DNA of 64,000 bases from Candidatus Beckwithbacteria bacterium GW2011_GWC1_49_16 (lineage in GTDB: Bacteria; Patescibacteriota; Microgenomatia; UBA1400; CG1-02-47-37). Location: positions 777,280-841,279 of the forward strand of contig CP011210.1 in the NCBI GenBank assembly GCA_001029675.1, written 5' to 3'. Positions 16,802-48,318 of this stretch are shown here, in pieces (position 1 is the first letter of the stretch; every line of letters starts with the position of its first letter). The notes below the pieces were generated by a model. It made no database searches. It was not told where the DNA came from and saw nothing but the letters and a program-made list of their open reading frames with translations. The position numbers were made by a program, and so were the translations under genes.

Positions 16802-16836
16802 CGTAATACGTAATCGGTAATACGTAAACCGTAATT
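16802..16836. repeat. five tandem imperfect heptamers (CGTAATA)n, intergenic
   Basis: cgtaata cgtaatc ggtaata cgtaaac cgtaatt between dtd and tpiA. Confidence 0.8.
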
Positions 16837-17481
16837 TTATGAGAAGCCTGAACAGAGGTCGAGTAAGGCTGTCTCGGGGTTGCGGGCTTTGACCACGGCC
16901 GAAGCCAGGATGACGCCGGCGGCGCCCAAACTTCTCGCCTGGCTTATATCCTGGCCGCTTCTGATGCCGGCGCCGACCAGAACCGGAATTGAGGTGAATT
17001 TAACGACTTTAGCAATGTCGGTAGATTTTTGCGACACAATCGAGACAGTGCCGCCGATAAGCTTGGGGTCCTCGAATGACAATAGGTCAGGCTTTAAAGT
17101 CAGGGCTTTTTTAAACAAAGCCACGGTGTCGACAATAATCAGGGTTTTTAAGTGGTAGTGGCGGCATTTTTGGTGAATGGTTTTGATTTGGTCAAAAGGC
17201 ACCTGGCGTTCGGCGTGATTGATGACCACGCCGGTAGCCCCGGCCAATTTGACTGAATAAGGCGAGGTCCAGCCGAAGTGGCGGTCGGGGTCAATCGGGT
17301 CGACGTGCTGGGCCCAAACTTCAAGGCCGACTTCGCGGACCAAGCGGTAGATGTCGACGGCTTGGGCGATGGGGATGATGGGAACTTTTGTTTTTTGGGC
17401 TACTTTCTTGACCAGGCGGCAGAGGTTGACGGCATTTTCACCAGAGGCCACCCGGTAGGTCTTTAAACTTAAAAAGATCAT
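16837..17481 (-). CDS. tpiA: triosephosphate isomerase, archaeal-type
   Basis: Aligns to archaeal TIMs (LKTY; WAQHVDPIDPDRHFG; GVVINHAERQ; VLVGAGIRSGQD...GVILASAVVKARN). Length 214 aa. Confidence 0.8.
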   Translation of the reverse strand: MIFLSLKTYRVASGENAVNLCRLVKKVAQKTKVPIIPIAQAVDIYRLVREVGLEVWAQHVDPIDPDRHFGWTSPYSVKLAGATGVVINHAERQVPFDQIKTIHQKCRHYHLKTLIIVDTVALFKKALTLKPDLLSFEDPKLIGGTVSIVSQKSTDIAKVVKFTSIPVLVGAGIRSGQDISQARSLGAAGVILASAVVKARNPETALLDLCSGFS

Positions 17482-17487
17482 GGGTTA

Positions 17488-17904
17488 TTATAAACTACAC
17501 TCAAGCTCTGATGCTACAGCGCAGATGTCTTCTTCGAGTAACTCCTCACAGGCGCCGATTTTAATTTTTCTCACCTGTTGGGCAGGCAGGGTTTTAATAG
17601 TTTCGGTGTTTTCTTGAATTATCTTGGTCACTTCCTGGACGATGACTTTGGTGATGGCCTGGGTGGTAGCGCCGGGGTCAATTTGAGTAGGGTCGACACT
17701 GCTGTCACTATCACCTCCCGTGCCGGTATTTTGCGCCAGTTCGGTTTCAATGCCTTTGACCAAAGACGAGTCGGAAAAACGGTTTAATAAATTTGGGGCA
17801 TAAGTTTGGAGGATAATCACCAGCCCTGCCAGACCAAAGCCAAACCAAACCGCCTTGAGTAAGAATTTAGGCTTGAGAAACGTCATATAGACAGATTGTA
17901 ACAT
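17488..17904 (-). CDS. hypothetical membrane protein
   Basis: One N-terminal TM helix. No motif. Confidence 0.35.
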   Translation of the reverse strand: MLQSVYMTFLKPKFLLKAVWFGFGLAGLVIILQTYAPNLLNRFSDSSLVKGIETELAQNTGTGGDSDSSVDPTQIDPGATTQAITKVIVQEVTKIIQENTETIKTLPAQQVRKIKIGACEELLEEDICAVASELECSL

Positions 17905-17922
17905 TTTTACTAAACTTAAATT

Positions 17923-18510
17923 ATGAAAAAGTGGCTTACGGCTTTGGCTTTAGCACTGCTCTTGGTCAGCCCGGCAAACGCCTCTCCCAGGGGGATTGAA
18001 GTACAAAACTTAGAAACTTTGAAGGAACGCCTCCAAGAAAGGCTGGAAGAGAGAATCACCACCCGAGAGGAACACCGGGAAGAGCTTGACGACTGGCGGG
18101 CGACGCTATCCGCCAGGCTCAAACAAATTCGAGACGAAAGAAAACTACGATTGGCGGCGCATCTAACCGAGCGGTTTAACCAAATTAATCAAAAATATAC
18201 CGAGCACGTCGCTCGATTGCTTAACCGCATGAGGGCAATTTTGGCTAAACTCGAAACCCGAGTGGAAGAAGCCGGCGGCGACGCGGAAACCGAAGCGGCG
18301 ATTGCGGCGGCTTACTCCGCCATAGCCGAGGCAGAAACGGCCAACGAGACTCAAGCGGCCAAAGAGTACGAGCTGGTATTTGACGACGAGGCCGGCTTGC
18401 GCTCGGCGGCGGCTACGGCCAAACAACTTCTCAAAGACGATCTGGGTGAGTTGCGCGATAAGGTTCACCAGGCCAGGAAAGCGGTGGTGGAGGCGATCAG
18501 AACAGCATGA
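17923..18510 (+). CDS. hypothetical secreted coiled-coil protein
   Basis: Signal peptide MKKWLTALALALLLVSPANA. Ala/Glu/Arg-rich helical repeats. Confidence 0.4.
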   Translation: MKKWLTALALALLLVSPANASPRGIEVQNLETLKERLQERLEERITTREEHREELDDWRATLSARLKQIRDERKLRLAAHLTERFNQINQKYTEHVARLLNRMRAILAKLETRVEEAGGDAETEAAIAAAYSAIAEAETANETQAAKEYELVFDDEAGLRSAAATAKQLLKDDLGELRDKVHQARKAVVEAIRTA

Positions 18511-18737
18511 AAAAAGCCTTGATTTTTTTGGTAGTCGGGTTGGTGGTAGCGGTTTTGGCTTGGGCGTATCTGCCCCGAACCGACGAGACTAAAACCAGAG
18601 GGGAACCAGATTACGCTTCCCAGGGCCTGTCGGAAGACACGGGGCTGACTACGCTGGAGCAGGAAACCAATGAGACGGAAACGCTGGACTTTGAGGCCGA
18701 CCTTAATACCTTGGACCAAGAAATCAACCAATTGTAG
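18507..18737 (+). CDS. small membrane-anchored protein
   Basis: N-terminal TM helix and acidic tail. Overlaps the previous gene by 4 nt. Confidence 0.3.
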   Translation: MKKALIFLVVGLVVAVLAWAYLPRTDETKTRGEPDYASQGLSEDTGLTTLEQETNETETLDFEADLNTLDQEINQL

Positions 18738-19902
18738 CGATTTGTTTTTTAACCAAGGCTTTGAGTTTTTTTAAGTTTACCTTGTCGTCGGATTTTACAT
18801 AGACCCTGATCATAAACCGAGGCGATTTGGCCGGCTGGTGGGCAAACTTTCTCCTTCGCCCCAAAATGGGCAGGTGAATTTTCCGAAAGCCCTTGTCGAA
18901 CTGGGCGATGGCGGCGACGTCTTCCGGGGGCAATTTGAAGCTTTGGGCGATGGCGTCTGAAAGCCGACCGCTAAATCTAGTGTAATCGTACATCGAAGGG
19001 AACACCGGCGCGTCGACAGTCCGGTCAAAGCTGAAGACCTCTTGATAAAACTGCCAGTGATAAGCCCTGTGGATCAGTTTGGCGGTTTTGGGGTTTAAAC
19101 CTCTCAAGTAATGCAGCGCTCCATCGTCGGTTTTGAGAAAAAAGTTTTTGTCAAGCTCGCCGTTTCTGTGGGCAAAGTGAAGCGCCCGGGTGAGCATGGC
19201 GGCTGGGGCCAAGTTTTCCCGGCTGTAAAGATAGTTATAGACCTGGTGGCGGCAACGCTCCCAGGCTTTGATTTGGTCCAAGTACCTCCCGGATAAAACC
19301 AGCTGGCCGTTTTTTTGAAAGACGAAAGCTTTGACTAGTCTTTCCGGGCGGTAGTAGCTGCCGCTGGCCAGAAGCCCGACACTTTGGCCGAAGCGGAGGG
19401 TGTTGTCGAGATTGTCAAGGTCGATGCTGCCGTTGACTAAGTCTGACAGGGGTGGGTTTACACCTTCGATATAGCTTAAAATTGTATTTAAATTTCCCCC
19501 TTGGCTTCTGATCACTCTGCCAATCTCGGTGTTAACCAGAAGCTTACGAGAAAACTCTTCGTGGTTTTGACCGGTGAGGGCAATCTGGAAAGGCTCGGAC
19601 AGGTGGGAAAATGGCGGAGTGCCGATGTCGTGCAAGGTCGCGGCCAGGACGATGTTGACCGCCTCCTTTTTGATCCGCCAGTGGGCGGATTTGACTAAGA
19701 GTTTGGCGAGAAATCTTACTCCCCGACTGTGTTCGGCTTTGCTGGCGGCAACGCCGGTGGGCTGGACCCAAGTGGGAATGGCCGATAAAGACACCCGGTT
19801 TAAGCGGGCAAACTGGGGGGTTTGGTAGATCGCCAAGTCGTCGGGGGCAACTTCGCTTCTGCCGTAGATTCGATCGTAGTGGGTAAAAACGGCTTTTGCC
19901 AT
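18724..19902 (-). CDS. HD-domain phosphohydrolase (dGTPase-like)
   Basis: HD motif LHDIGTPPFSH, dNTP triphosphohydrolase-like. Confidence 0.65.
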   Translation of the reverse strand: MAKAVFTHYDRIYGRSEVAPDDLAIYQTPQFARLNRVSLSAIPTWVQPTGVAASKAEHSRGVRFLAKLLVKSAHWRIKKEAVNIVLAATLHDIGTPPFSHLSEPFQIALTGQNHEEFSRKLLVNTEIGRVIRSQGGNLNTILSYIEGVNPPLSDLVNGSIDLDNLDNTLRFGQSVGLLASGSYYRPERLVKAFVFQKNGQLVLSGRYLDQIKAWERCRHQVYNYLYSRENLAPAAMLTRALHFAHRNGELDKNFFLKTDDGALHYLRGLNPKTAKLIHRAYHWQFYQEVFSFDRTVDAPVFPSMYDYTRFSGRLSDAIAQSFKLPPEDVAAIAQFDKGFRKIHLPILGRRRKFAHQPAKSPRFMIRVYVKSDDKVNLKKLKALVKKQIATIG

Positions 19903-19909
19903 AAGGAAG

Positions 19910-20404
19910 TTATTTTACTATCTTTGGCCAACCAATCAAGGGCAGTTTTAAGGGTTTTATAAGATGGCGGCGGTAGAGGTTTAAAGTCTCGGCGTGGTCG
20001 AAGGCTATTTTCTCTGCCGGAGGCAGGGCGTCAAGCTTAAACCACTCCACCCGACTGATTTCTCCGTCCTGCTGGCCGACTTTTTTTATCGGAGTGGCCA
20101 GATAGACCAGAGCCACGTTCTGCCGATCTTCTCCTCGCCGCTTGGGGTTGTCGATCAGCCGAAACAACTCTTCAACCTTTACCTGGTAGCCGGTTTCCTC
20201 CAAGGTCTCGCGGGTGGCGGCTTCTGCCGCGGTTTCGTCGCGTTCTAAGTACCCGCCGGGCAAAGCCCACTTACCCGCTTCAAGCAGGGTGTCGTCTCCC
20301 CTTTTGACCAAAAGAATTTTGTCGGCCTTGACCACCAGCGTGTCCACTACCACGTGGCGGAGCTTGGTTGGCTGGTCGGAGTCTTCAAAGTAACAGGTGA
20401 TCAT
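19910..20404 (-). CDS. NUDIX hydrolase
   Basis: Nudix box [23 protein letters not shown]. Confidence 0.8.
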
Positions 20405-22307: not shown

Positions 22308-22326
22308 GGGTCGATTATATAACAGC

Positions 22327-24601: not shown

Positions 24602-24603
24602 AA

Positions 24604-25023: not shown

Positions 25024-25274
25024 TATTTTTTAGATTTTGTGCCTTTTTGCAGCTGGTCGTCAAAATCAAAAAAGTCTTTTAATTCCTCGTCGGTGTAACT
25101 TCTGACAGGATAAGGCAAAGTTCTAACCGGTTCCAGATAAATTCTACCCTTGTCTTCCTTAATCCTAATTAAACCATTTTCCTCAAGGCCATATTTAGCT
25201 CTAATCGCCTTGGGAACAGTCATGAGCCCTTTAGGCTGGAGTTTGACGATAGTCTCCAATGATTGCTTTTGCAT
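25023..25274 (-). CDS. AbrB/SpoVT-family antitoxin-like DNA-binding protein
   Basis: Swapped-hairpin motif LQPKGLMTVPKAIRAKYGL. 83 aa. Confidence 0.6.
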   Translation of the reverse strand: MQKQSLETIVKLQPKGLMTVPKAIRAKYGLEENGLIRIKEDKGRIYLEPVRTLPYPVRSYTDEELKDFFDFDDQLQKGTKSKK

Positions 25275-25349
25275 ATTTTCTACTATATAGAAATTCTAAC
25301 TTTCTGTCAAGTGTTTTTTCCCATCAACTGTAAGCTACAATATAGACAA

Positions 25350-27662: not shown

Positions 27663-27733
27663 TGCCGGGTGGTGAAATGGCATCACTGCTGGCTCTGAAC
27701 CAGCCATTCTAGGTTCGAATCCTAGCCCGGCAA
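27663..27733 (+). tRNA. tRNA-Gln (anticodon CTG)
   Basis: Cloverleaf folded by hand: acceptor TGCCGGG/CCCGGCA, D-stem GTGA/TCAC, anticodon loop CTCTGAA, T-arm CTAGG-TTCGAAT-CCTAG. CCA not encoded. Promoter-like TTGTAT...TATAAT upstream. Confidence 0.8.
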
Positions 27734-27745
27734 CCCCTCGACTAT

Positions 27746-28024: not shown

Positions 28025-28041
28025 GGGGTCCACGTTGGAGA

Positions 28042-31000
28042 CTAACCGAAGAAATCATCTCGTGGCGATGAATTTGCTCCTATCTTATCTATAAATTCCC
28101 TTATTAGGTTAATTCTTGTGCTCTTTCTACCGCGCTGCTTATTGAGATAAAACAGGTTACGAATTTGCACAAACCACTCCCAAGGAACTTCTAGTTTATT
28201 CGATACAAAAACGTTCAACAGCCTCTGAATATAGCTGGCGTCTGATTTTCTGCCTGACCAAGCCTGCTTGATAAATTCTTTCCCTAATTCTCTCCGAACT
28301 TGCTGGCGAATTTTTTGGATTTTCTCACTGTTTAAGATACTTTGATTATGTTCGCTAACCAAACTAATGAATCCGTCGAGAAACCCAACATAGTCTCCCT
28401 GGCGAAAAGTGTTAAAAACCTCAACTTCCTGTTTAGAAAACGAAAAGTCCGTAGGTAAATCGATTGCCCCCAAGGTTCCATCTTGGCTAATAATAAAGTT
28501 GCCGGGGTGAGGATCTTGAGGGAAGATATACTGCCCAACATCCACACCTACAGGCGTTTCAAAAAAAGAATCTACAAATCCTAAAACTATATGCAACGCC
28601 TTAAGGGTTGTTTTAATATCCTCGGATAAGTTATCCTGATTTTCTAGCCACTGATTAAAATTTTTAGAATCGAATGGTACTTTGTTTTTGGCTAAATAAG
28701 AAGATACTTGACGATTTTGCAGATACCGATTAAGCGTCGAACCGGCTAAATATTCTTCTACTCTAATATGATTGTCTGGGGTGGCAAATAGCGGCTTGGC
28801 GGTGATAATTGGCTTGTCGATTTTTTCAGATATAGCTTTAATCGCCTGGCGCAAGATAGCGCCCCATTGGGGTTTGTTATCTTTCAGATCTGCCTTGCTC
28901 CAATGTCGCGCCACTCCCAACACAATTTGGGCCAGCTGGGCGTGTTTTTTGGTCTGCTCGTTTCCGTGTTTCTCGGCGTACCGGAGGGCCGCTATGGTGC
29001 TATCGTAGGAAATATCAACAAAGGCAGCAGCGTTTGCCGTATACATTTTTAAGGCAGCGGTTTTGACTCCTAGCTTCTTGATTCCTTTGGGGGTTAAAGA
29101 GACTTTGTAGGCCGAAGCAAGGCTACCTCCTCCTAAAAATTCGTCTATTGTATCTAACATTTCTCCGACAAATAGGCTTAGAGAAGTTTCCGCATCACCA
29201 GATTTATCATCCTCTACCTCCTTATGGAGATTGAGCCAAAGCTTAAATTCATCGGTGGGCTGCATCCGATCAAAGGCGTTGCTTAACCTTTTGGCTAGCT
29301 TTGGCTCGAAATCGTATACCAGCTGGGCTATTTGCAGAGAGCGCACGAATAAACTACCCATTGATTCGATACCTTGAATAAAAGACTCTGTCCGGGGGGA
29401 AAGGCCGGATTGCTCGGCCGCCTCAACCTCCTGATATTTTTGAGTCAAGTTAAAATTACTGGTATATGCTTCAAGCCATTGATGCAGGCGCCTCAAGTGA
29501 CTAGTGGATGCTTGATATAATTTTGATAGAGCCTCCAGGCCAGTTTTTCCTCTTAAAATACTGCCTATTTCTACTATGTTATCCCTTGATTCGCTGAATA
29601 AATTTGGTAAATAGCTGTATTCTGGCTTTCCTGAAAAAGCGCTGCCCCTTTTGTAAAATTCTTTCTTAATTCTGGTGTAGTTAATTGCCTGCAAATCCAG
29701 CCCGGAAAAAAGCAACGGTCCTAAAAGTTGGGATAAACCTAACCCTACCAATGAAGGTTTACCCTCGATAATTAATCCTTTGGCAACTTGCTTGACGAAG
29801 TCGTCTTCAATATTGAATGACTTGACTACGAGATCGGCCAACCACTGTCTCTTCTCGGTAGTAGCAAGCAAACCATCTGAATCAAGAAGCAAGCGCATCA
29901 TCAGACCCTTTTTAGCGCCCTCTGATAATCCTTGGAGTCCTTGAATTACATCTTTGACTGTGCGGAAACGATCACGTTCTCTAAAAGGATCGATAATTAC
30001 TTTTCTGAGCTGTCGGTCAAACTGGATTCCGCTGCTTGGCTTGGTGTCGTCGGTTTTAATCTTGGCTATAAAAGTACCCAACCAGGTTTTAGCCAAATCG
30101 GTGGTATATTTGAGCTTTGATAGCGGATCGTCTGCGATAGTACCCACCACCCACTGCTTATCCTTAAAGAGCGATACCACTAGGTCTCCGATGGCCAAAG
30201 CATCTAACTTCCAGGAATTTTCGTCTCCGCGGAGCACGGCCATTCGCTCCAAGCCGATTTGATCAAAAAAGTACTTGGCGTCGTCATAATGCTTCACCTG
30301 TTTCATCAGCACTAAAAGATCGCTATAGGAAAATTTATGGTAATTATCTAGAAAATAATCCATTCGGCTTCTTATTTTTTCTGGGTTTGACTCGGCGGAG
30401 ATAATATAGGCCAGACGCAGGTCATGAATTTTTCGACTTAGATCAGGGCTGGCGTCCGTCATGTCAATCCCACCACCAATACCACTGACGATATTCTCAA
30501 ATGCTTGAATTGCCGCTGGTAGGACTTCGGAGTCAATATCCTGATGCAAAAAGTCAATAAACTTTCCTTCAAAGAAGGGGTAGAAAATAAGTCCGGCAAG
30601 ATTTGATGAAAATATTTTTTTGGAACGATAGTGAGAGTGCATGCCGAGGTAATGAGCGTGATCGATGCGTTCGTTGTAGTCAGCCAAAGCTTGGTCTAAG
30701 GCGACAAAGGATTCAATTTGATAGGTGTGCTCCAGTTTCTTCTGAAAAGAAAGGTGAAGTGGGGAAGTAGCCAGTTTTTCTCCCATATATAAAGTTTGAT
30801 CACCAAACCAATAAGAAAAGTTAAGTACATGCCAGATTTGATCGTTAAGTGAAAGTCGGTCAAAGTCACTGCCGTAATGCTTTTCCATATAGTGTAACGA
30901 ATCGACCATTACCTGCCTTTTCTCTTCATATGCTTTAAAGGACGGATATGTATCTACTTCTAAATTTGCAATAAATGCTTCAAGGCGCATTTTCAATGAA

Positions 31001-32988
31001 CTGGGAAGCACTTTGCCCTTTTCATCAAGACTAAATAAAGTGGACGTCTCACGCTCTGTTTCAATTTGAGGGTCAAAATCAAGTCCGGTAAAATCGGCTG
31101 ATCTTACTTGCTCTCGAAGATAAGTAATGATGGGCGCATAGTGTTTTCTAATCTCAGTTGCAAGCGGGTGAGATTCTGCTAACTGAATGTTGCTATACAG
31201 CAATCTTCTTAAATTACTGAATTTTCTATATAAAACGTGTACTTCTTTCTCAGAGAAAATACTGTTGAGTATTCTAGATACCTGTTCTAAGCTAAAAAAA
31301 GCTGGCTCGGACTCAAGCTGCTCTTTATAGAGATTAACTCCGAATACTTCTAGAAAAATAGGCTCCAGCTGGTCTTTGGTTAGTTGGGTGACTCGGTCAG
31401 AATCAATGTCGCCTTTTTTGTTTCTAAAGATTTGATGAGTGCCAAGGGCGTTTTCGAGAAGCAACCATGTATCAGATGCGGGGCTATACCCTGTTTTGGC
31501 GATTTTTTGAAGTAGTTGTCTTAACTCCTTTTGGTCAACTCGTTGTGTTTTTGGATCAAATAATCTAGCCGCAATATATGTAGAAATAATGGGGTCTACA
31601 TGCCACCAGTATTTGCCGAATTGCTCGTCTTTATCCTGTCTTGCGAATTCAACATACGCCTCAATAATCTCGAGAAAAGTGTTTTCTTTTATAGCTACAC
31701 CCTGGTTAATCAAGAAAGTTATCTGGCCCTCGCAGGCAGCGTCAATGTCAGTCTGTCGGGCATACAAACCATCCCAGTCGCCTGGCCAATTGTCTCGGGC
31801 ATAGACTCCGAAAATTCTATAGTTCATTCCTCTCCATTGTTTTGGATCAATTGTGTGTCCGTGTTTAAGAATCTTGAGGTAGTCTTGGTAAGTATGGTTG
31901 GAAAAGGCATGCTGGCGCCATCTCTCATTCCCCCACCACATCGTCAAAAGAAGGCTGTCTTGGTCGAGAGGTAATAAGTCTACGTCTGTAGTACGTTTTC
32001 GAAGAAATTCAGTAAGCGCTTGTTGAAAAGCCTCACTATCTTTAAGATCCCCCCTGCTAAAACACCCGTTATCCAGTAGTTGGCATAAATCTTGAGAATG
32101 GAGCTTATCTAGTAATTCAGCCGCGTTTCCTTCAACCAGTCCCTCGGGCCACATTTCGGCAATTTCGCGGTTTGTTGGCTTAATTTCTTGTTTATAGAAA
32201 CTAATGGTTTCGCCGTCGGGTAAAGCTACCTTGTCCAAGGGAATAATGTCGGCGCTACTGAATTTCCGATTGATAAATTGGTGCTCGATGAGAGGAAGGC
32301 TGGCTCGCATCAGGGGTGATTGATGGCCTAAGTCGGTTCTTTGGTTTAAGCTTTCTTTAGCTTGGCGTTCAAAAAAATCATGGGCGACTAAAGTATTTAT
32401 TCCGACTTTATCAAGCAACCGGGAAACCTCGGCATCCGCCCCAAGCTCATGGACCCACTCTGTCGAGATGCTTTCTCGAGAAACATAGGTACCATTGATT
32501 AAATGGGCAACTTCGTGGGCAATAATACCCAAAGCGGCACTAAAAGAACCGGAGCGGTTTATCAAGGATTGAGAAAGAACTATGGTTCCGTCAGGAAGAA
32601 TAAATCCTTTTTCGGTTAACCCCCGGTTAAGAATAACTACCTGAACGTCGCCTTTGTAAACCTCACCTTGCAACATTTTCTTGGCATATTGACCTAATAT
32701 CCTGGTTCTTTCAGAACCGCTTTCTGTTTCATGGGTAACAGCTAAATATTTTTGGGTTTGATTAGTGAAATCGTTGTTTGCTTTAATTTCTTGTTCTGTT
32801 AACGTTCTGTCCGGGTAAGCGTCTGAAAGTATAAATAATGGTTTTAAAGTTATATCGGCTTCCCCCCGAAATTCCCCAGGCATGTCTGACACGGAATAAA
32901 GTGGTTCTGGCTTAGCCTCAACCTTGCGACCACCAAATAAATCTCCAAGATCCAATCCTGCCGTCTTTAGAGTAGCTACTTCCCCCAT
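28042..32988 (-). CDS. giant multidomain protein: N-terminal HExxH zincin-like domain, long helical middle, C-terminal ABC1/UbiB-like atypical kinase domain
   Basis: IIAHEVAHL...E zincin motif near aa 170. C-terminal ABC1 motifs (LASAYKV, GVKTAALKM, DPHPGNFII, AIDL). AT-rich relative to flanks. Confidence 0.6.
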   Translation of the reverse strand: MGEVATLKTAGLDLGDLFGGRKVEAKPEPLYSVSDMPGEFRGEADITLKPLFILSDAYPDRTLTEQEIKANNDFTNQTQKYLAVTHETESGSERTRILGQYAKKMLQGEVYKGDVQVVILNRGLTEKGFILPDGTIVLSQSLINRSGSFSAALGIIAHEVAHLINGTYVSRESISTEWVHELGADAEVSRLLDKVGINTLVAHDFFERQAKESLNQRTDLGHQSPLMRASLPLIEHQFINRKFSSADIIPLDKVALPDGETISFYKQEIKPTNREIAEMWPEGLVEGNAAELLDKLHSQDLCQLLDNGCFSRGDLKDSEAFQQALTEFLRKRTTDVDLLPLDQDSLLLTMWWGNERWRQHAFSNHTYQDYLKILKHGHTIDPKQWRGMNYRIFGVYARDNWPGDWDGLYARQTDIDAACEGQITFLINQGVAIKENTFLEIIEAYVEFARQDKDEQFGKYWWHVDPIISTYIAARLFDPKTQRVDQKELRQLLQKIAKTGYSPASDTWLLLENALGTHQIFRNKKGDIDSDRVTQLTKDQLEPIFLEVFGVNLYKEQLESEPAFFSLEQVSRILNSIFSEKEVHVLYRKFSNLRRLLYSNIQLAESHPLATEIRKHYAPIITYLREQVRSADFTGLDFDPQIETERETSTLFSLDEKGKVLPSSLKMRLEAFIANLEVDTYPSFKAYEEKRQVMVDSLHYMEKHYGSDFDRLSLNDQIWHVLNFSYWFGDQTLYMGEKLATSPLHLSFQKKLEHTYQIESFVALDQALADYNERIDHAHYLGMHSHYRSKKIFSSNLAGLIFYPFFEGKFIDFLHQDIDSEVLPAAIQAFENIVSGIGGGIDMTDASPDLSRKIHDLRLAYIISAESNPEKIRSRMDYFLDNYHKFSYSDLLVLMKQVKHYDDAKYFFDQIGLERMAVLRGDENSWKLDALAIGDLVVSLFKDKQWVVGTIADDPLSKLKYTTDLAKTWLGTFIAKIKTDDTKPSSGIQFDRQLRKVIIDPFRERDRFRTVKDVIQGLQGLSEGAKKGLMMRLLLDSDGLLATTEKRQWLADLVVKSFNIEDDFVKQVAKGLIIEGKPSLVGLGLSQLLGPLLFSGLDLQAINYTRIKKEFYKRGSAFSGKPEYSYLPNLFSESRDNIVEIGSILRGKTGLEALSKLYQASTSHLRRLHQWLEAYTSNFNLTQKYQEVEAAEQSGLSPRTESFIQGIESMGSLFVRSLQIAQLVYDFEPKLAKRLSNAFDRMQPTDEFKLWLNLHKEVEDDKSGDAETSLSLFVGEMLDTIDEFLGGGSLASAYKVSLTPKGIKKLGVKTAALKMYTANAAAFVDISYDSTIAALRYAEKHGNEQTKKHAQLAQIVLGVARHWSKADLKDNKPQWGAILRQAIKAISEKIDKPIITAKPLFATPDNHIRVEEYLAGSTLNRYLQNRQVSSYLAKNKVPFDSKNFNQWLENQDNLSEDIKTTLKALHIVLGFVDSFFETPVGVDVGQYIFPQDPHPGNFIISQDGTLGAIDLPTDFSFSKQEVEVFNTFRQGDYVGFLDGFISLVSEHNQSILNSEKIQKIRQQVRRELGKEFIKQAWSGRKSDASYIQRLLNVFVSNKLEVPWEWFVQIRNLFYLNKQRGRKSTRINLIREFIDKIGANSSPRDDFFG

Positions 32989-37917: not shown

Positions 37918-37934
37918 GTGGTATGATAAGTTAA

Positions 37935-39050: not shown

Positions 39051-39781
39051 GCGACCGGGCCTAAAGGAATTTGGTCTTGGGGGTCGTCGACGAAGAGCAA
39101 GACCACCCGGCCTTGTTTGGGGCCGGGGTAGAAACCTAAAGCATGCATTACCTCGGGGGAGCCGCCAAACTGCTTGCCGGTGAATACGGCCGGGCCGGCG
39201 TCGCCGATGACGGCAACCACGGCTTGACCGGTGGCGGGGTTGACAACTAAAACCTTGCGGTGGCGATACCAATCCCTTAAAGCCCGTAAATCTTGGTTCC
39301 AGTTGGGCAGGTAAAAAGTTTGGACGGCGACGTAGTAGCGTTCGGCGACGGGGTCGTCAAAATAACCCCAGGCGCCGCGGTTAGCGGTCAAGCCAACTTC
39401 GGGAAAAAGGTGGCCGGCTATGGTATCGCCGGGAAAACGGGGCAGATGTTGTTCTAAGCCGATGCGGCCGAGTTGGTGGTTTAAACGGTGGCCGTCAAGC
39501 TCCACCGCGGTGGCTAGCCCCAAAGTGCCGGAAATGGCTTGGAGCAGCTTTTTCTCTTCCTTTTGAGTTAAAACCCGAGAAAAGGGAGGCAAGGCGTGGT
39601 CGAGTTTGTCGGCCAGCAGGGCTTGGAGCTCTAAGGGTGTCACCAGGCCGAGTTTTAAGCGGTATGAAGCTGATCTTTGGGGCAAGGGCTGGGTCAAGAA
39701 GGTAAAAATACCCCAAAGCGCCAAGACTAACGCGGCCAAACTAAAGGGCTTCATGGGCAGCCTGAAGACGGCGGCTGACAA
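39014..39781 (-). CDS. hypothetical secreted protein (possible RlpA-like double-psi beta-barrel)
   Basis: Signal peptide. VLVVNPATGQAVVAVIGDAGP...SPEVMHALG resembles the DPBB pattern. Confidence 0.3.
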   Translation of the reverse strand: MSAAVFRLPMKPFSLAALVLALWGIFTFLTQPLPQRSASYRLKLGLVTPLELQALLADKLDHALPPFSRVLTQKEEKKLLQAISGTLGLATAVELDGHRLNHQLGRIGLEQHLPRFPGDTIAGHLFPEVGLTANRGAWGYFDDPVAERYYVAVQTFYLPNWNQDLRALRDWYRHRKVLVVNPATGQAVVAVIGDAGPAVFTGKQFGGSPEVMHALGFYPGPKQGRVVLLFVDDPQDQIPLGPVAYPFSSKSPVKT

Positions 39782-41150
39782 CTTCCGGCCCCAAAACTTC
39801 CATCAGGGCAAAAAGCGGCGGGGTGGCGACCTTGCCGGTTAAACTCACCCTTAAAGTCATAAACAGCTCTTTTGTGGTCCAGCCGGTAAGCTCAATAAGG
39901 TCGTGGCCGATTTTTTCTAAGTTTTTTTCCTGCCAGTCGGCGGCGGAATTTTTGGCGAAAGCGGAAACAGTTTGGCCCAAGGCGGTTTTGACGGCGGCGC
40001 GGTCTTTGCCTGACTGGGCGACGATGAGGTCAAGCGGCGCTTTGATGTCGCCGGCGAAATAATCTAAAAACAAGTTGATGTCGTTTAGAGTCACCAGGCG
40101 GTCGCGGACCAGGGGAAGAATGCTGGTTAGTTTGGCGTCGGCAAGTTTGAACTTAAGCCTGGGTTTGACCAAGGCGAAAAGCTCTTGGTTTGAAAGCTGG
40201 CGGATGTATTTGGCGTTGAAGTAATTGAGTTTTTTGAGGTCAAAGATGGGATTTTGCTTTTGGACTTTTTTGAGGTCAAAAAGTTTGACCAGTTTTTTTA
40301 AGTTTAAAAGCTCGGAGTTATCATTGTGCGACCAACCCAAATAAGCCATAAAGGTGATCAGGGGTTCAACCAGGTACCCCTCATCAAGGTAGTCTAAAAC
40401 CGATTTAGCGCCGTGGCGCTTGGAGAGCTTGGCGTGATCCGGGCCTAAGATGACCGGGAAGTGGCCAATTTTGGGCACCGGCCAACCAAAGGCTTGATAC
40501 AAAAGCAAATGCTTCGGGGTGGACGAGATCCACTCGACGCCGCGGAGGATGTGGCTTACTTTCATTAAGTGGTCGTCGACGACGACGCCAAGATGGTAGG
40601 TGGGGAATTGATCTGATTTTAAAAGCACCTGGTCATCGATCTGGTTGTTTTTAAAGCTGATTTTGCCCTGGATTAAATCTACCCAAGAAGTTTCACCAGT
40701 GTCAGGAACTTTGAGGCGGATGACGTGAGGGGTTCTTTTGGCAAGCTGGGTTTTAACCTGGGCCCGAGTCAATTTTAAACAGCGGCGGTCGTAGCGGGGC
40801 AAAGCACCCCTTTTTTGTTGAGCTTTTCTCATGGCGGAGAGTCTTTCCTGGGTACAAAAACAGTAGTAGGCCTTACCGCTTTTGACCAGCTTTTCGGCGT
40901 GGTCTTGGTAGATTTTAAGGCGCTCGGACTGGGCGAACGGACCCTCGTCCCAGGCGATCCCCACGGCTTTGAGGATGGCAAGAATTTTTGGCAGGCTGTC
41001 GGGCTGTAAACGAGCCCGGTCGGTGTCTTCGATTCTTAAAACAAACTGCCCTTGATTTTTTTGGGCGAAAACATAGTTGTACAAAGCCGTCCGGGTGTTG
41101 CCGATATGGGGCACGCCGGTAGGGCTGGGGGCAAAACGGACTCGAACCAT
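39741..41150 (-). CDS. gltX: glutamate--tRNA ligase
   Basis: HIGN motif (PSPTGVPHIGNTRTAL) and KLSKR. Confidence 0.9.
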   Translation of the reverse strand: MVRVRFAPSPTGVPHIGNTRTALYNYVFAQKNQGQFVLRIEDTDRARLQPDSLPKILAILKAVGIAWDEGPFAQSERLKIYQDHAEKLVKSGKAYYCFCTQERLSAMRKAQQKRGALPRYDRRCLKLTRAQVKTQLAKRTPHVIRLKVPDTGETSWVDLIQGKISFKNNQIDDQVLLKSDQFPTYHLGVVVDDHLMKVSHILRGVEWISSTPKHLLLYQAFGWPVPKIGHFPVILGPDHAKLSKRHGAKSVLDYLDEGYLVEPLITFMAYLGWSHNDNSELLNLKKLVKLFDLKKVQKQNPIFDLKKLNYFNAKYIRQLSNQELFALVKPRLKFKLADAKLTSILPLVRDRLVTLNDINLFLDYFAGDIKAPLDLIVAQSGKDRAAVKTALGQTVSAFAKNSAADWQEKNLEKIGHDLIELTGWTTKELFMTLRVSLTGKVATPPLFALMEVLGPEVVSRRLQAAHEAL

Positions 41151-41166
41151 AATTTAGGAAATAACC

Positions 41167-41187
41167 TCTAGCTTCTAGCTTCTAGTA
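41167..41187. repeat. three tandem heptamers (TCTAGCT)n, intergenic
   Basis: tctagct tctagct tctagta between gltX and the downstream gene. Confidence 0.7.
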
Positions 41188-41211
41188 ACTTGGTTATATT
41201 ATACTCAAAGT

Positions 41212-42279
41212 ATGGCGAGTTTGACGGAAACGGCACTGATAGCCAGGCGAGCGGTAAAGTTTGGCGGTTTGGCTTTGGCGGTGATTATTGTCATCAAACT
41301 GGGTTTGGCTTTTTATAACACCTACCTTAAAGTGGTTAACCCGCCTCCCCCGCCGCCGCCGACGGTGGCTTTTGGCAAGCTGCCGGAGATAAGTTTTCCC
41401 CAAAAGATTCACCCGGAGCTGACCTTAAGGCTGGAAACACCGACAGGGGGAACGCCTGACCTGGGAGACAGAGCCACTGTCTACCTGATGCCCACGTACC
41501 GGTCGAACCTTCTGGCTTTGGACCAAGCCAAAGAAACTGCCGAGAAGATGAGGTTTAGAGACGAGCCGAGAGAAATAACCGAAAGACGTTTTCTTTGGGA
41601 AGACAACCAGTTTTTGCCCAGCTCGCTTGAAATGGACATTATCAACGGGTCTTTTTTACTCAAAAGGAATTGGCAGGCGGACCCGACGATACTCACCGAA
41701 AAACAGCTGCCGGGCAAAGAACAGGTGGTGGTGGAAGCCAAGCAGTTTTTGCGCCAGGCCGGACTTCTGACCGAGGAACTCGATGACGCCAGGGTGGAAA
41801 TTTCTTACCTTAACTTTTCCGGCGGCCAGTACGTGCCGGCAGTGAGCCTGTCGGAGGCCGACTTTGTCGAAGTGAATATTTACCGGCCGGATATAGACGA
41901 GGTACCGGTGTTGCCGGCCGACCCCGACCGCGGCATTGTCCGCTTAATTTTCTCCGGGTCGCGCGAGGCCCAACAGCGGATTATCCAGGCAGAGTATAAC
42001 TATTATCCGGTGGATAAAGACCAGTCGGCGACTTATCCGGTCAAGACGGCCAGCCAGGCTTGGAGGGAGCTTGTCACCAGACAAGGATATATTGCCAGCG
42101 TGGGCGACAACCCCAGCGGAGTGGTGGTGATCAGGCGGATTTATCTTGGTTACTATGACAATGAGGTGTCGCAGGGATTTTTGATGCCGATCATTGTCTT
42201 TGAGGGAGACAACGGTTTTTTTGGCTACGTGTCGGCGACTCTCAATGAATGGCTTGAGATGATTCCCAGCGGTGGTTGA
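41212..42279 (+). CDS. hypothetical membrane-anchored protein with poly-Pro linker
   Basis: N-terminal TM, PPPPPPP tract, no known motif. Confidence 0.4.
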   Translation: MASLTETALIARRAVKFGGLALAVIIVIKLGLAFYNTYLKVVNPPPPPPPTVAFGKLPEISFPQKIHPELTLRLETPTGGTPDLGDRATVYLMPTYRSNLLALDQAKETAEKMRFRDEPREITERRFLWEDNQFLPSSLEMDIINGSFLLKRNWQADPTILTEKQLPGKEQVVVEAKQFLRQAGLLTEELDDARVEISYLNFSGGQYVPAVSLSEADFVEVNIYRPDIDEVPVLPADPDRGIVRLIFSGSREAQQRIIQAEYNYYPVDKDQSATYPVKTASQAWRELVTRQGYIASVGDNPSGVVVIRRIYLGYYDNEVSQGFLMPIIVFEGDNGFFGYVSATLNEWLEMIPSGG

Positions 42280-44589: not shown

Positions 44590-44619
44590 TAAAGAATTAT
44601 CTTATAGTATAATAATGCC

Positions 44620-45246
44620 ATGGATTATCCTGATCGGAAAATTTTTCCTTCGGCCATTCCCGGACAAGAGTTTAAAAGGTCGAGGGCAGTAGTGGCTGCC
44701 CTGCTAGCCCTAGAACTAGAGGGTACTGTCACAGTCGATGGTAAAGCTGTCAGCCCGGAGCATTTTTTAGAAGTAGGAGAGGGCGGAAAAATGATTTTCT
44801 CTTCCCAACCGGCTTTGAAAAACTTTGGCGCTGAAGTTAAAAGATTATTTGACCAGGCGGCTCGGGCCTTGGCCATGAAACAGGACGCTCAAACACCTTT
44901 TAACGAAATCGTCGCTGTTTTAAACCCTCAAAAACCAACTCCTCAAAAAAAACTCACACCTAGGCCATGGGAAGTCGATATTAATCAAGTAAGCGTTGAG
45001 TCTTTGTTGCCGGCGATAGAATATATCGTCAGTGACACTGCTAACCTTCTTGGACTTGACGAGTCAACATTTACTAAATTTGACCCAAAGAAAGGCCGTG
45101 TCAGTTTGAGGCCGACGATTAAAAACTTCGGCGAAAGTACCTATAGAGAGATAATTCAACAGGCGCTTAGGTTCACTTACGATGCGGGCCACCATGAACC
45201 GAGTGGAATAGTAACGGCTATGGTTAATGACGGGGTAAAATTATAA
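44620..45246 (+). CDS. hypothetical protein
   Basis: No motif. Confidence 0.35.
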   Translation: MDYPDRKIFPSAIPGQEFKRSRAVVAALLALELEGTVTVDGKAVSPEHFLEVGEGGKMIFSSQPALKNFGAEVKRLFDQAARALAMKQDAQTPFNEIVAVLNPQKPTPQKKLTPRPWEVDINQVSVESLLPAIEYIVSDTANLLGLDESTFTKFDPKKGRVSLRPTIKNFGESTYREIIQQALRFTYDAGHHEPSGIVTAMVNDGVKL

Positions 45247-46906
45247 TATCCTTGACTTTAAGCTGCAGCGATTTTTGATTATTCCAGACATTTTCATCGA
45301 TGGCGTAGGCAAGGTCGACCGTGGCTCCGGGAGAAAGGCTGGCTGATAACTGACCAAAGCCAAAGGCGATACCCCCTAGTTTCGAGTTTCGTGCTTCGTG
45401 CTTCGTGCTTAAAATTAGTTGGAGATGTTTGCCTTCCTTACCCACCTGGCGCAGGCGATCAAGTTTCACTCCCCTGGTGACAAAGACGGGCATGGGGTTG
45501 TCAAAACCAAATGGGGCAAAACGGCTTATCTCCCGATAAAGCTGCCAGCCGACGTCGGTTAAATTAATCTCGCAATCGACTTCCAAAACCGGTTTTAATT
45601 GCTCCGGCGTTAAACTCTCGGCAGCGACTTTTTGCAGCCGGGTTTTGATTTGGGGCAGGTTTTTGGTTTCGGCGGTAAAGCCGGCGGCAAGTTTATGGCC
45701 GCCGACTTCCAAAAACAGACTGCTTAGGCTTTGGAAGTTTTTGATTAAGTTGAAACCCTTGATGGAACGGGCTGAACCTTTGGATTGAGATTCACCGACG
45801 GCGACGACCACGGCCGGGCGGTGGAAGCTTCTGACCAATTGGCTCGCCACCAAGCCGACGATGCCGTCGTGGTAGCTGGGGTCGGAGACGAAGATGAGGT
45901 TTTGGTTTTTTTGCGCTTTGGCCTGGTCCAGGGCATGAAAAAAAGTTTTTCTGGTTAAATCCTGGCGGTTAAGATTGGCCGAGTTTAAGTCGCGGGAGAG
46001 CTTTTTGGCCCGGGCTTTATCGCGGGTGCAGAGTAAGCGCAGGGAATCGAGGGCCTGGTGGAGGCGGCCCATGGCGTTTAACCTGGGGGAAAGTAAAAAG
46101 CTGACTTGGTAATCATCCAGGGTTTTAAGATTGACGCCGGCGTCCCGGGCCAGAGTCACAAGGCCGGGGCGGGAGGTTTGGCGAAGATCGTTTAAGCCGT
46201 GGAAGGCCAAAGAGCGGTTGACCGACAAAAGCGGAACCATGTCGGCGATGGTGCCGAGAGCGGCGAGCTCGAGGGTGGTAACACTCCCGGAGTGGAGGAA
46301 ATGTTTCACTATTTCGCGGGCGAAAAACCAGGCGACGCCGGCACCGGAGGTCAAAGTGGTGTGGATGACGGCGGTGGCGGGGGGAAGTTTTTTTTGGGGG
46401 ACGTGGTGGTCGGAGATGATTAGGTCGATCCCCTCTTTTTTGGCAAACCGGGCGCCTTTGAAAGAGACGATGCCGTTGTCGACGGTGATGATTAAGGCGG
46501 GTTTATCTTTTTTTAAAATAGTGGTGATGCCGGCGACTGACAGGCCGCGGGTGGCGTCGCCCCTTAAGGGAATGAAGGGCAGGACTTTGGCGCCTAAGCG
46601 GTCTAAAGTTTCCCAGAGAATGGCGGTGGCGGTGATGCCGTCGGCGTCGTAGTCGCCGTAGATGTAGATTAATTGTTTTTGGGTTAAGGCCTGTTTGAGG
46701 CGGGTTAAAGCTTTTTTGACTTGTGACTCACTGATGCCGATTGTTTTTAAATCCAAGTCTTGGGGATGAGGGGGCTGGAAAAATTCTTTTTGGGCCGGTT
46801 TTGTCAGCAGGCGGCGATTTTTTAACAGAGCGGCGATGATCTGTTGGCGGCGGATTTTACTGCTTTTTCCGGAAACTTTTTGGTTGACGTGCCACACCTT
46901 GGTCAT
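45224..46906 (-). CDS. recJ: single-stranded-DNA-specific exonuclease RecJ
   Basis: DHH motifs (YGDYDADGITA, ISDHH). DHHA1 region. Confidence 0.85.
   Translation of the reverse strand: MTKVWHVNQKVSGKSSKIRRQQIIAALLKNRRLLTKPAQKEFFQPPHPQDLDLKTIGISESQVKKALTRLKQALTQKQLIYIYGDYDADGITATAILWETLDRLGAKVLPFIPLRGDATRGLSVAGITTILKKDKPALIITVDNGIVSFKGARFAKKEGIDLIISDHHVPQKKLPPATAVIHTTLTSGAGVAWFFAREIVKHFLHSGSVTTLELAALGTIADMVPLLSVNRSLAFHGLNDLRQTSRPGLVTLARDAGVNLKTLDDYQVSFLLSPRLNAMGRLHQALDSLRLLCTRDKARAKKLSRDLNSANLNRQDLTRKTFFHALDQAKAQKNQNLIFVSDPSYHDGIVGLVASQLVRSFHRPAVVVAVGESQSKGSARSIKGFNLIKNFQSLSSLFLEVGGHKLAAGFTAETKNLPQIKTRLQKVAAESLTPEQLKPVLEVDCEINLTDVGWQLYREISRFAPFGFDNPMPVFVTRGVKLDRLRQVGKEGKHLQLILSTKHEARNSKLGGIAFGFGQLSASLSPGATVDLAYAIDENVWNNQKSLQLKVKDIIILPRH
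45380..45407. repeat. four tandem heptamers (YTTCGWG)n inside recJ coding sequence
   Basis: tttcgag tttcgtg cttcgtg cttcgtg. Encodes STKHEARNS on the minus strand. Confidence 0.75.
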
Positions 46907-46926
46907 AATTTGGTTATAATCTTATC

Positions 46927-48318
46927 ATGAAGCTTGAGTTGCCGGCTTCGGTAAAAAAAGTCTTAAAGACTTTAGCTGATGCCGGATTTGAAGTTTATAT
47001 TGTGGGCGGGGCGGTGAGGGATATTTTGACCGAAACTGCCGTCACCGACTGGGACTTTACCACTGACGCTAGGCCTGAGGAAATTACCAAGCTTTTTCCT
47101 GACGCTTTTTACGACAACGTCTTTGGCACGGTGGGGGTGGCGGAAGAACACCTCGGAGGCAAAGGCGAGGGTGTTTATGAAATCACTACCTTTAGAACTG
47201 AAAGTGGCTATTCTGATCGCAGACGCCCGGACCAGGTCACTTGGGGCAAATCTTTAGAAGAGGACTTGAAGAGGCGTGACTTTACCATCAATGCCATGGC
47301 TTTGAAAATCCGAAATCCGAAATCCGAAATCCGAAAAAAATTTGAGGCGGAAGTGGTGGATCCTTTTAGGGGAGAAGCCGACCTGCAAAGCAGGTTAATC
47401 CGGGCGGTGGGAGACGCCAACAAAAGGTTTAAGGAAGATGCTTTGCGGATGATGCGGGCGATCAGGATTGGGGCGCAGTTAAAGTTTGCCATTGAAGCGA
47501 AAACTTTGGCGGCGATCAAAAAAGATAGCCGGCTAATTGGTGAAATTGCCGCCGAAAGGATCAGAGACGAACTTTTGAAAATAATCGCCTCCCCTTATCC
47601 TAAGGAAGGAATTTTGCTGATGGCCAACAGCGGATTACTGGCTCAAGTTTTGCCGGAAATAATTCCCATGCGCGGGGTCCAGCAAGGCGGGCACCACACT
47701 AAAGACGTCTGGAATCACTCTTTGGATTCTTTGGCGGCTTGCCCCTCGCCGGACCCGATGGTGAGGCTGGCGACGCTACTTCATGACGTCGGTAAACCTC
47801 AAGTCAAAAAAGACCGGGGACGGGGCAAGGAAATTACTTTTTACAACCACGAGGTGGTGGGGGCGCGGATGACCAAGGTAATTGCCGAAAGACTCAAACT
47901 GTCTAAAAAACAAAAAAATTTGTTGTGGATCCTGGTACGCTGGCACATGTTTGCTTATGAACCGCAGATGACCGACAAGGCTGTAAGACGCTTTATCCGC
48001 CGGGTGGGCCGTGACAATATTAACAAGATGATGATGCTACGAATCGGCGACCGGGTGGGCGGCGGCACCAAGGCTACCTCCTGGAGATTGAGGGAGCTGC
48101 AAGAGCGGATCGGTCAGGTGCTTTACAGCCCGATGGAAATCAAGGACTTAAAGGTGAACGGCCGCGATGTAATGAAGATTTTGGAAATTAAGTCGGGGCC
48201 AAAGGTGGGTGAAATTCTAAAGAAGCTGTTTGACGAGGTGATGGAAGACGCCGGCAAAAACAAGCGCGAGTACTTGCTGAAGCGGATTAAGCAACTCTAT
48301 CACACACCGGGTGTGTGA
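46927..48318 (+). CDS. cca: CCA-adding tRNA nucleotidyltransferase with HD domain
   Basis: Head motif GGAVRD. HD motif LLHDVGKP. The last codons HTPGV* are contributed by a REP element. Confidence 0.8.
   Translation: MKLELPASVKKVLKTLADAGFEVYIVGGAVRDILTETAVTDWDFTTDARPEEITKLFPDAFYDNVFGTVGVAEEHLGGKGEGVYEITTFRTESGYSDRRRPDQVTWGKSLEEDLKRRDFTINAMALKIRNPKSEIRKKFEAEVVDPFRGEADLQSRLIRAVGDANKRFKEDALRMMRAIRIGAQLKFAIEAKTLAAIKKDSRLIGEIAAERIRDELLKIIASPYPKEGILLMANSGLLAQVLPEIIPMRGVQQGGHHTKDVWNHSLDSLAACPSPDPMVRLATLLHDVGKPQVKKDRGRGKEITFYNHEVVGARMTKVIAERLKLSKKQKNLLWILVRWHMFAYEPQMTDKAVRRFIRRVGRDNINKMMMLRIGDRVGGGTKATSWRLRELQERIGQVLYSPMEIKDLKVNGRDVMKILEIKSGPKVGEILKKLFDEVMEDAGKNKREYLLKRIKQLYHTPGV
47308..47335. repeat. 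four tandem heptamers (ATCCGAA)n inside cca coding sequence
   Basis: atccgaa x4 followed by an A7 run. Encodes IRNPKSEIRKK. Confidence 0.8.

Follow-up and report, generated by a model that had tools for sequence, protein, structure and literature searches.

The locus studied here raises the question of why two housekeeping genes of a bacterium of the candidate phyla radiation (CPR) should carry, within their coding sequences, tandem arrays of a unit of 7 nt, a length that is not a multiple of 3. The window, by which we mean the whole 64-kb stretch of a Candidatus Beckwithbacteria genome that was analyzed (positions 1-64000), contains four such heptanucleotide arrays, two in intergenic DNA and two inside the divergent neighbors recJ and cca, whose products are identical to the Candidatus Beckwithbacteria bacterium proteins AKM79618.1 and AKM79619.1, respectively; the host derives from groundwater metagenomes, including PRJNA268031, and its longest contig measures 1,049,888 bp. 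The tracts are probably members of a class of heptanucleotide arrays that is widespread in Beckwithbacteria and other CPR lineages and that most resembles the 7-bp short tandemly repeated repetitive (STRR) sequences of cyanobacteria. The searchable literature yielded no paper linking heptanucleotide repeats, or tandem repeats together with phase variation, to CPR or Patescibacteria, and the arrays of the Beckwithbacteria lineage are apparently undescribed.

Period-7 arrays in the window

Repeats were sought with Tandem Repeats Finder (TRF) and with an exact lag-match scan over periods 2 to 20 and were judged against 200 dinucleotide-preserving shuffles of the window. The three longest exact tandem repeats all have a period of 7, and the next-longest include the period-14 reading of the array at 16802; the shuffled sequences yielded a mean of 0.03 period-7 tracts of comparable quality, and none of the 200 contained at least three tracts at any period. 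The period-7 excess in the window is far beyond chance, which bears out the proposal of a first-pass annotation that repeats of this period are commoner here than those of other periods. That annotation had listed four loci with three to five tandem copies each. All four are present where it placed them (Table 1), but the array at 41167 holds only 2.7 copies and that at 16802 is imperfect: TRF gives it 74% matches when it is read with period 7 and 85% when it is read with period 14. The perfect part of the recJ array (45388-45410) consists of 3.3 copies of TTCGTGC and is preceded by two degenerate 5' copies; on the sense strand the array reads as three copies of AAGCACG followed by AAACTCG and AAA.

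The two intergenic arrays occupy very short spacers. On the minus strand, 43 nt separate the tpiA stop (16837) from the dtd start (16793), and the array at 16802 takes up this space, immediately before the dtd start codon; that at 41167 lies within the 61-nt divergent spacer between gltX (start at 41150, minus strand) and an unassigned open reading frame (ORF) at 41212-42279 (plus strand); because its unit contains TAG on both strands, the latter array cannot be coding. No consensus promoter was found by a promoter scan at the 41167 tract, and promoter and terminator scans at both intergenic tracts returned nothing or chance-level matches only, a weak sigma-70-like match ending at 16834 being of this kind. 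Rfam searches at gathering thresholds, covering the window and the related loci L171, L169, and L007, returned only tRNAs and placed no RNA family at any array.

Insertions in surface loops of Cca and RecJ

The peptides that the first-pass annotation had read from the genic arrays are encoded as it claimed. Residues ~127-137 of Cca, (K)IRNPKSEIRK(K), come from the cca array and follow motif B (RRDFTINAMA) but precede motif C (DPFxG); residues ~499-508 of RecJ, STKHEARNSK, come from the recJ array and belong to a beta-hairpin loop in the OB-fold domain. The further suggestion that these peptides are inserts is supported by orthologues that do not have them, and no orthologue encoding the same peptides from nonrepeat DNA was seen. 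The loop between motifs B and C of Cca is a turn of 4 to 5 residues in PDB 6IBP and 1MIV; it has 8 residues in 63 of 111 Beckwithbacteria proteins, which is the clade baseline, 12 in the nearest relatives (73-75% identity; e.g., LKIKGENEAEII), and 19 in the window. At the OB-fold hairpin of RecJ, PDB 8Y30 and tract-free orthologues are shorter by 6 to 8 residues. Alignments with orthologues and PDB chains place the insertions in surface loops of the two housekeeping proteins, with the ORFs kept in frame, and they identify both genic tracts as lineage-specific insertions in beta-hairpin loops.

The cca loop also provides an argument for an origin by purely local slippage, in which each array would have grown independently from a chance proto-repeat, through a general tendency of bacterial polymerases to slip in a 7-nt register, with neither a family nor any copying, and in which alike units would be put down to coincidence or to A-rich loop codons. 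Deletion of exactly three units (21 nt, 7 amino acids) from cca gives LKIRKKFEAEVV, which aligns without gaps with the 12-residue loops of the relatives (LKIKGENEAEII and the like), and in most CPR genomes the Cca-loop tract begins directly after the conserved AMAL-K codons, with a different unit. We return to this explanation below, where the relationships among the units are considered.

Natural alleles that differ by whole units

The first-pass annotation had predicted that gain or loss of a single unit would frameshift recJ or cca, and loss is directly seen in natural alleles that truncate both proteins. Clusters of Cca and RecJ at 90% identity contain truncated members (P0005, P0011, and P0003, on L083, L084, and L167) whose lengths fit a frameshift at the tract. 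In the 289-kb contig L083, cca lacks one unit (-7 nt) and encodes a Cca of 154 amino acids followed by a downstream ORF of 321 amino acids; in the 1.6-kb contig L167, it lacks two units (-14 nt) and encodes a Cca of 134 amino acids; and in the 263-kb contig L084, recJ lacks one unit (-7 nt) and encodes a RecJ of 507 amino acids. Apart from the tract indel, L083 and L084 show 100% identity with the window across stretches of 20.5 and 21.5 kb, respectively, so that the tract indels are the only polymorphisms there, as expected of a hypermutable repeat. With head-to-tail copies, an excess over what composition predicts, and whole-unit alleles of recJ and cca in near-identical genomes, the arrays behave as microsatellites that change by whole units.

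Errors of sequencing or assembly would provide another explanation of such variants, which are known from assembled contigs only, one of them (L167) of just 1.6 kb. The reference alleles are, however, identical in 46 and 38 contigs that represent dozens of independent assemblies, including a 1.05-Mb genome; the tracts, at 19 to 34 nt, are far shorter than the reads and the assembly k-mers (k99 to k141 in the contig names); and each variant departs from the reference by precisely one or two complete units. Since the tracts are so much shorter than the k-mers and the changes so exact, we regard an artifact as barely conceivable. The companion proposal that the periodicity results from selection on a repeated peptide was ruled out, since a 7-nt period is not divisible by 3 and runs through all three frames.

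Loss of the reading frame in cca may not leave the cell without the remainder of the enzyme. In the frameshifted alleles, gene callers start a downstream ORF of 320 to 321 amino acids (L083:10420-11385 and L167:478-1440) at a GTG codon (Table 1), and these ORFs contain the rest of Cca; a two-piece Cca restarting at this codon is a putative route of rescue. A second possibility is offered by the A7 run that overlaps the 3' end of the array, at which a slip of one A by RNA polymerase would restore the frame in both the -7 and -14 alleles, transcriptional slippage at poly(A) runs being known in endosymbionts. No naturally split cca gene was found in other genomes; the CPR locus L010 has an in-frame insertion of ~68 amino acids in the first variable loop of cca (945-2573), after FGTV, and not a split gene.

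Lesions of other kinds were observed in recJ, namely, a stop codon near window position 46515 in L165, created by two substitutions around a T4A7 run, and a 4-nt deletion at approximately window position 45724 in L166. Loss-of-function alleles of recJ seem to be recurrent in the population, or some of these alleles are assembly errors.

It might be supposed that the arrays make recJ and cca contingency loci that are switched reversibly, with the intergenic tracts tuning the promoters of dtd and the gltX region, and that useful heterogeneity results. The tetranucleotide tracts of Haemophilus influenzae and the 7-bp repeats upstream of hmw1A and hmw2A (PMC2651432, PMC8262952) share with the genic arrays a unit that is not a multiple of 3 and a switch thrown by a single unit, together with naturally occurring on and off alleles, which for recJ and cca are known from consensus contigs only; 7-bp promoter repeats drive the switching of the HMW adhesins of that species (PMC8262952). 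In our material, too, a one-unit change switches the ORF off, the off alleles are the consensus in 289- and 263-kb contigs without accumulated substitutions, one intergenic tract is situated in a 5' leader and the other in a divergent promoter region, and the other lesions of recJ suggest that its loss is tolerated or sometimes favored. Contingency tracts, however, are longer, usually lie near the 5' end, and belong to surface or restriction-modification genes under fluctuating selection, whereas the present tracts are short (2.7 to 4.9 units), and the genic ones are situated at codon ~127 of the 463 of cca and at codon ~499 of the 560 of recJ, in midgene or near the 3' end, at permissive loops, as would be predicted of tolerated insertions. 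The hosts, recJ and cca, are housekeeping genes, the intergenic tracts have dtd, tpiA, and gltX as neighbors, and cca is presumably essential: the sole tRNA gene of the window, that for tRNA-Gln(CUG) at 27663-27735, is followed by CCCC and does not encode its 3' CCA, so that Cca is presumably needed. No allele with extra units was seen, and in three other assemblies (L001, L083, and L084) the intergenic tract at 41167 showed no variation. Adaptive phase variation is, on this balance, highly unlikely.

Most likely, the frameshift alleles represent a mutational burden; at best they form a polymorphism that the cell tolerates, and a designed switch is the less likely reading. Loops of 7 nt are too large for ordinary mismatch repair, and out-of-frame, loss-of-function alleles of recJ and cca would therefore keep appearing. 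The RecJ exonuclease stabilizes tandem repeats in E. coli, and by analogy the loss of RecJ could feed back on repeat instability.

Heptamer arrays in other CPR lineages

The first-pass annotation raised a process specific to this genome, and as worded this is not supported: tracts of the same kind occur across CPR, in the identical loops of Cca and RecJ, and at higher density in some other Beckwithbacteria. Cca-centered loci from other CPR genomes (0.99 Mb) were set against non-CPR loci (1.41 Mb), and a tract was counted if it reached 2.7 copies and 88% matches. Period 7 was the top period in the CPR loci, with 24 tracts compared to 12 at period 6 and 11 at period 8, and its density was ~4 times that in the non-CPR loci, where 7 was likewise the top period. 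An excess of heptanucleotide simple sequence repeats (SSRs) in bacterial genomes is in any case already described in the literature, with credit to Mrazek 2007 and together with a polymerase-footprint hypothesis (PMC4692102), so that a heptamer excess as such is not genome specific either. That the excess extends across bacteria (PMC4692102) and also to our non-CPR controls is a further point in favor of local slippage.

A period-7 run in loop 2 of Cca, defined by at least 11 matches at a given period, was present in 8 of 64 CPR loci and in none of 64 non-CPR loci. The same loop in the CPR loci contained no runs at periods 3 to 6 or 10 to 12 and one each at periods 8 and 9, and in the non-CPR loci it contained no run at any period. 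The units differ between CPR lineages: the loop has perfect arrays of AGCCACC (4.7 copies) and GAGACTG (5.0 copies) in L169, a perfect array of ACAAATC (4.7 copies) in L170, and a period-14 array (2.7 copies) together with CTTGTAG (3.6 copies) in L171. A test for a 7-residue periodicity among 119 Cca homologues was uninformative, since conserved motifs dominate the other periods and tracts of four to five units give too few matches.

Among Beckwithbacteria and related loci, the number of strict tracts per 10 kb ranges from 0 (L085, L086, L172, and L173) through 0.47 in the window to 3.5 in L171 and 6.2 in L169, and 30 of 39 strict tracts lie within long ORFs. The RecJ proteins of L169 to L173 and the window vary from 518 to 613 amino acids, with the extra length confined to a few loops (after DHHQ, before LELAALGT, and at the OB-fold hairpin) and largely heptamer derived in L169 and L171, in both of which recJ has at least three tracts. 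Each RecJ tract matches an insertion relative to the 518-residue tract-free orthologue, and the OB-fold hairpin has been used in the window, in L169, and in L171.

Unit families and their possible dispersal

The recJ and cca arrays of the window have a common TTCG/CGAA core, and in blastn-short comparisons they match L171:6956-6982 at 26 of 27 positions and L171:9373-9397 at 24 of 25 positions, respectively. Four-unit TTCG/CGAA arrays with a 7-nt spacing and a length of ~32 nt were confined to 3 of the ~160 sampled genomes (those of the window, L007, and L171), in all of which they have the flanks GTTTCG... and ...CGAAACAA in common, and the matching arrays in L171 and L007 lie at sites that are not orthologous to those of the window. 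No further TTCG/CGAA arrays were found in the window itself besides the two genic tracts, even at a looser setting for which the shuffle expectation is 0.6. A second family, with a CCAG/CTGG core, accounts for 9 of 15 tracts in L169 and L171 against a background of 5.6%, and in L169 recJ and cca each carry, in the sense orientation, one and the same two-array composite, (YYACCAG)n-spacer-(GAGACTG)n. Within each of three genomes, recJ and cca carry the same unit family, and the family differs between the genomes. A common family with matches elsewhere makes it probable that the window tracts are not independent accidents of local slippage, and we consider pure local slippage, despite the points in its favor, a somewhat unlikely account of the arrays.

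We suggest instead that new sites acquire arrays of lineage-specific unit families, whether the arrays originate there or are copied in. Inside genes, the arrays that survive would be those that add a multiple of 3 nt, fall in a permissive loop, and present a hydrophilic, stop-free orientation on the sense strand. Once established, they would mutate by replication slippage in steps of 7 nt.

The means of copying could be a mobile mini-element, of which the ~32-nt arrays would represent the arms; such a palindrome would resemble a repetitive extragenic palindromic (REP) doublet (REPIN) or a miniature inverted-repeat transposable element (MITE), would be mobilized in trans, perhaps by the Y1 protein encoded near cca, and would persist where a copy landed in frame in a loop, as do Rickettsia palindromic elements (RPEs). 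In L171, inverted TTCG-type pairs with homologous arms form two hairpins of ~140 nt (z = -4.7 and -3.9), accompanied by a solo arm, at sites where intergenic DNA is almost lacking in the window and scarce or absent in L172 and L173; in L007, inverted four-unit TTCG/CGAA arrays flank a 23S_rRNA_IVP gene; and the L169 recJ insertion folds as a 97-nt hairpin (z = -5.3). In-frame insertion of palindromes into housekeeping genes is precedented by the RPEs (PMC10969869). As to a transposase, the Y1/HUH protein of the window finds its best NCBIfam match in the REP-associated tyrosine transposase (RAYT) family (NF047646), but the score of 59.7 bits falls below the cut-off of 80 bits. REP and REPIN elements are mobilized by RAYT transposases of the Y1/HUH type, and RAYT genes are normally flanked by their own REPs, whereas the Y1 gene of the window, which lies 9 nt from the cca stop and overlaps the start of secF, has no repeats or arrays on its flanks. 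It is absent from the equivalent position in the related loci L171, L172, and L173, and no homologue was found in the fetched loci, the repeat-rich ones included, which span only ~10 kb on each side of cca. Further difficulties are that 32 nt is not a multiple of 3 and that the same loop carries widely differing units across CPR lineages. Dispersal through this RAYT-like gene is a possible mechanism, and the gene a candidate for it; a mobile mini-element seems to us unlikely. An active CPR process that seeds or copies ~32-nt heptamer arrays in REPIN-like fashion into intergenic DNA and in-frame loops, with on/off polymorphisms of recJ and cca, is distinctly unlikely; if it did operate, array seeding would be a source of the lineage-specific protein insertions that are typical of CPR.

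Several considerations weigh against dispersed families as the origin of the window tracts. The density of the repeats and the spectrum of their units in this genome were read from these 64 kb. The statistics of the unit families rest on motifs picked after inspection of the data; L169, L170, and L171 are Beckwithbacteria picked for periodic-looking Cca loops, so that of the 39 strict tracts the 13 in cca (binomial p = 2e-5) are an inflated count, the 9 in recJ (p = 5e-6) being unaffected by this selection, and some tracts of L169 and L171 are orthologous and hence not independent events. Length alleles were read from consensus contigs and are not within-sample frequencies. The growth of the cca loop from 12 residues by 7 is compatible with in situ slippage from a 10-nt seed, with no copying, and a growth from 8 residues by 11, as through an insertion of ~33 nt, matches the loop length equally well. 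Because no relative closer than 75% identity was found, the birth of a tract is untraceable; no target-site duplication or defined element end was identified, there being no empty-site relative above 75% identity for comparison. The window arrays are solo, with neither an inverted partner nor a hairpin, which speaks equally against the mobile element, and two of the four are genic; folding of the four gave z scores of +2.3, -0.9, +0.3, and +0.4, nothing beyond shuffles, so that the hairpin idea is confined to the relatives. No CTAG- or CGTAAT-type arrays occur in the other scanned loci, and TCTAGCT and CGTAATA are therefore singletons, as local slippage would have it.

Two other candidates were rejected. 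Transposon footprints, in the form of 7-bp target duplications, were ruled out by the presence of 4 to 5 copies and by identity across loci, and inversion of the DNA that separates the oppositely oriented arrays of recJ and cca was ruled out because it would fuse halves of unrelated enzymes.

Some features of the relatives deserve separate mention. Intergenic elements of ~120 to 140 nt, each composed of two inverted heptamer arrays, are present at 6856-6995 and 9270-9412 in L171 and at 9078-9198 in L169; they fold into long hairpins (z = -3.9 to -6.3), and the window has overlapping or abutting genes at these places. A central GC-rich palindrome, CCGCCAGCTGGCGG, is found in one of these elements. 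The L171 arrays GCTGGTG and CTGGTGG (1326-1351, 2388-2424, and 6653-6669) contain the E. coli Chi octamer GCTGGTGG in each repeat, which is probably coincidental. The gene of L007 (1649-2122) encodes a protein of 121 amino acids of the 23S rRNA intervening-sequence protein family (four-helix bundle, Avd-like; PF05635), lies outside any rRNA gene, and together with its arrays resembles a small cassette.

Comparison with known repeat systems

The cyanobacterial STRRs are 7-bp repeats that are capable of forming hairpins and have no known function or mode of spread (PMC2670836), and heptamer repeats of the types GGGAATC and GGGGA(T/C)T are documented in Xanthomonas and Nostoc (PMC2670836, PMC4692102). 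Repeats of the STRR type combine a 7-bp unit, which the CPR arrays have as well, with a few families distributed over many unrelated loci and related genomes and with inverted arrays that can form hairpins, two traits that may have their counterparts in the TTCG-type matches in L171 and L007 and in the hairpin pairs of the relatives. Those studied are intergenic, often long, and G rich, whereas the arrays described here have ~4 units and many are translated in frame; moreover, the CPR units differ by sublineage (TTCG-type, CCAG-type, and AT-rich), and the window arrays stand alone. The likeliest placement of the arrays is in dispersed families that are specific to the lineage and comparable to the STRRs. 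Bacterial heptamer SSRs likewise share with our tracts the excess of 7-nt tandem units over other long-unit periods and length polymorphism by whole units, but the work of Mrazek et al. (2007), as summarized in PMC4692102, covers cultured phyla and stresses intergenic arrays, whereas here the host belongs to CPR, ORFs contain three quarters of the tracts found in the CPR sample, and the same protein loops are hit repeatedly.

The retention of the arrays in frame parallels, by analogy, that of RPEs and other intragenic MITEs, which insert in frame into unrelated housekeeping genes and add a surface peptide while leaving the protein intact (PMC10969869). In-frame insertion into a surface loop is observed in the window as well, but a palindrome with terminal inverted repeats is observed only in relatives, as in the L169 recJ; the L169 insertions in recJ and cca are palindromic like RPEs, and those of the window are not. 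RPEs are, furthermore, ~100 to 150 bp in length, with a conserved peptide-coding consensus and no internal tandem periodicity (PMC10969869), whereas the window inserts are 31 nt, have an internal period of 7 nt, and are unstable through unit slippage. The likeness to REP/REPIN elements lies in the inverted ~32-nt arms of L171 and L007, which are 60 to 430 nt apart and form long intergenic hairpins, and in the single RAYT-like gene among housekeeping genes in the window; REP arms, on the other hand, are not tandem heptamers, and the Y1 gene differs from RAYT genes in the respects given above.

Confirmation on a genome-wide scale would extend the puzzle of STRRs and heptamer repeats from cyanobacteria and Xanthomonas to the uncultivated CPR, would mean that heptamer repeats are able to reside inside essential genes, and would provide a concrete source, at the DNA level, for the loop insertions behind the divergence of CPR proteins. 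The repeat-rich and repeat-free sister lineages (L169 and L171 versus L172 and L173) offer a handle on the preference for a 7-nt register. Natural loss-of-function polymorphisms of recJ and cca in an otherwise clonal groundwater population bear on how symbionts with tiny genomes tolerate or exploit instability, and annotators should be aware that, where cca or recJ is called as split in a CPR bin, the cause may be a genuine repeat-length allele and not an error.

Host genes and other features of the window

The identification of recJ, cca, dtd, and tpiA made in the first-pass annotation is correct by profile and family matches (Table 1). The triose-phosphate isomerase fits the archaeal-type subfamily PRK04302 and not the bacterial TIM equivalog.

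Table 1. Arrays, their host genes, and adjacent features in the window
Feature	Position	Strand	Basis
dtd	16347-16793	-	
Imperfect array CGTAATA CGTAATC GGTAATA CGTAAAC CGTAATT	16802-16835	.	TRF, 4.9 copies
tpiA, archaeal-type triose-phosphate isomerase	16837-17481	-	PRK04302, 191.6 bits
gltX	39741-41150	-	
Perfect array TCTAGCT, 2.7 copies	41167-41185	.	TRF, lag scan
recJ, single-strand-specific 5'-3' exonuclease, 560 amino acids	45224-46906	-	TIGR00644, 425 bits, above cut-off
recJ array TTTCGAG TTTCGTG CTTCGTG CTTCGTG CTT, 4.4 copies	45380-45410	-	TRF
cca, class II CCA-adding tRNA nucleotidyltransferase with HD domain, 463 amino acids	46927-48318	+	
Perfect array AAATCCG in cca, 4.4 copies	47306-47336	+	TRF, lag scan
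A7 run overlapping the 3' end of the cca array	47334-47340	+	Sequence
GTG codon 143 of cca (VVDPF...), GAGG upstream; start of the downstream ORF in frameshifted alleles	47353-47355	+	Gene callers
HUH/Y1 transposase-like gene, 236 amino acids, between cca and secF	48328-49038	-	Pfam Y1_Tnp, 39.7 bits

An ORF of 1648 amino acids at 28042-32988 (minus strand) has no NCBIfam match and sits in the part of the window with the lowest GC content (0.42, compared with ~0.49 to 0.52 elsewhere). A tandem duplication of period 22, CCCCGACGTAACAGTCGGGGGGT in two copies, is present at 59963-60006, each copy containing a GC-rich inverted repeat, CCCCGAC...GTCGGGG. GC skew is positive in nearly all 4-kb bins of the window, with a maximum of +0.165, and cumulative skew rises nearly monotonically, which indicates that the entire window lies on a single replichore.

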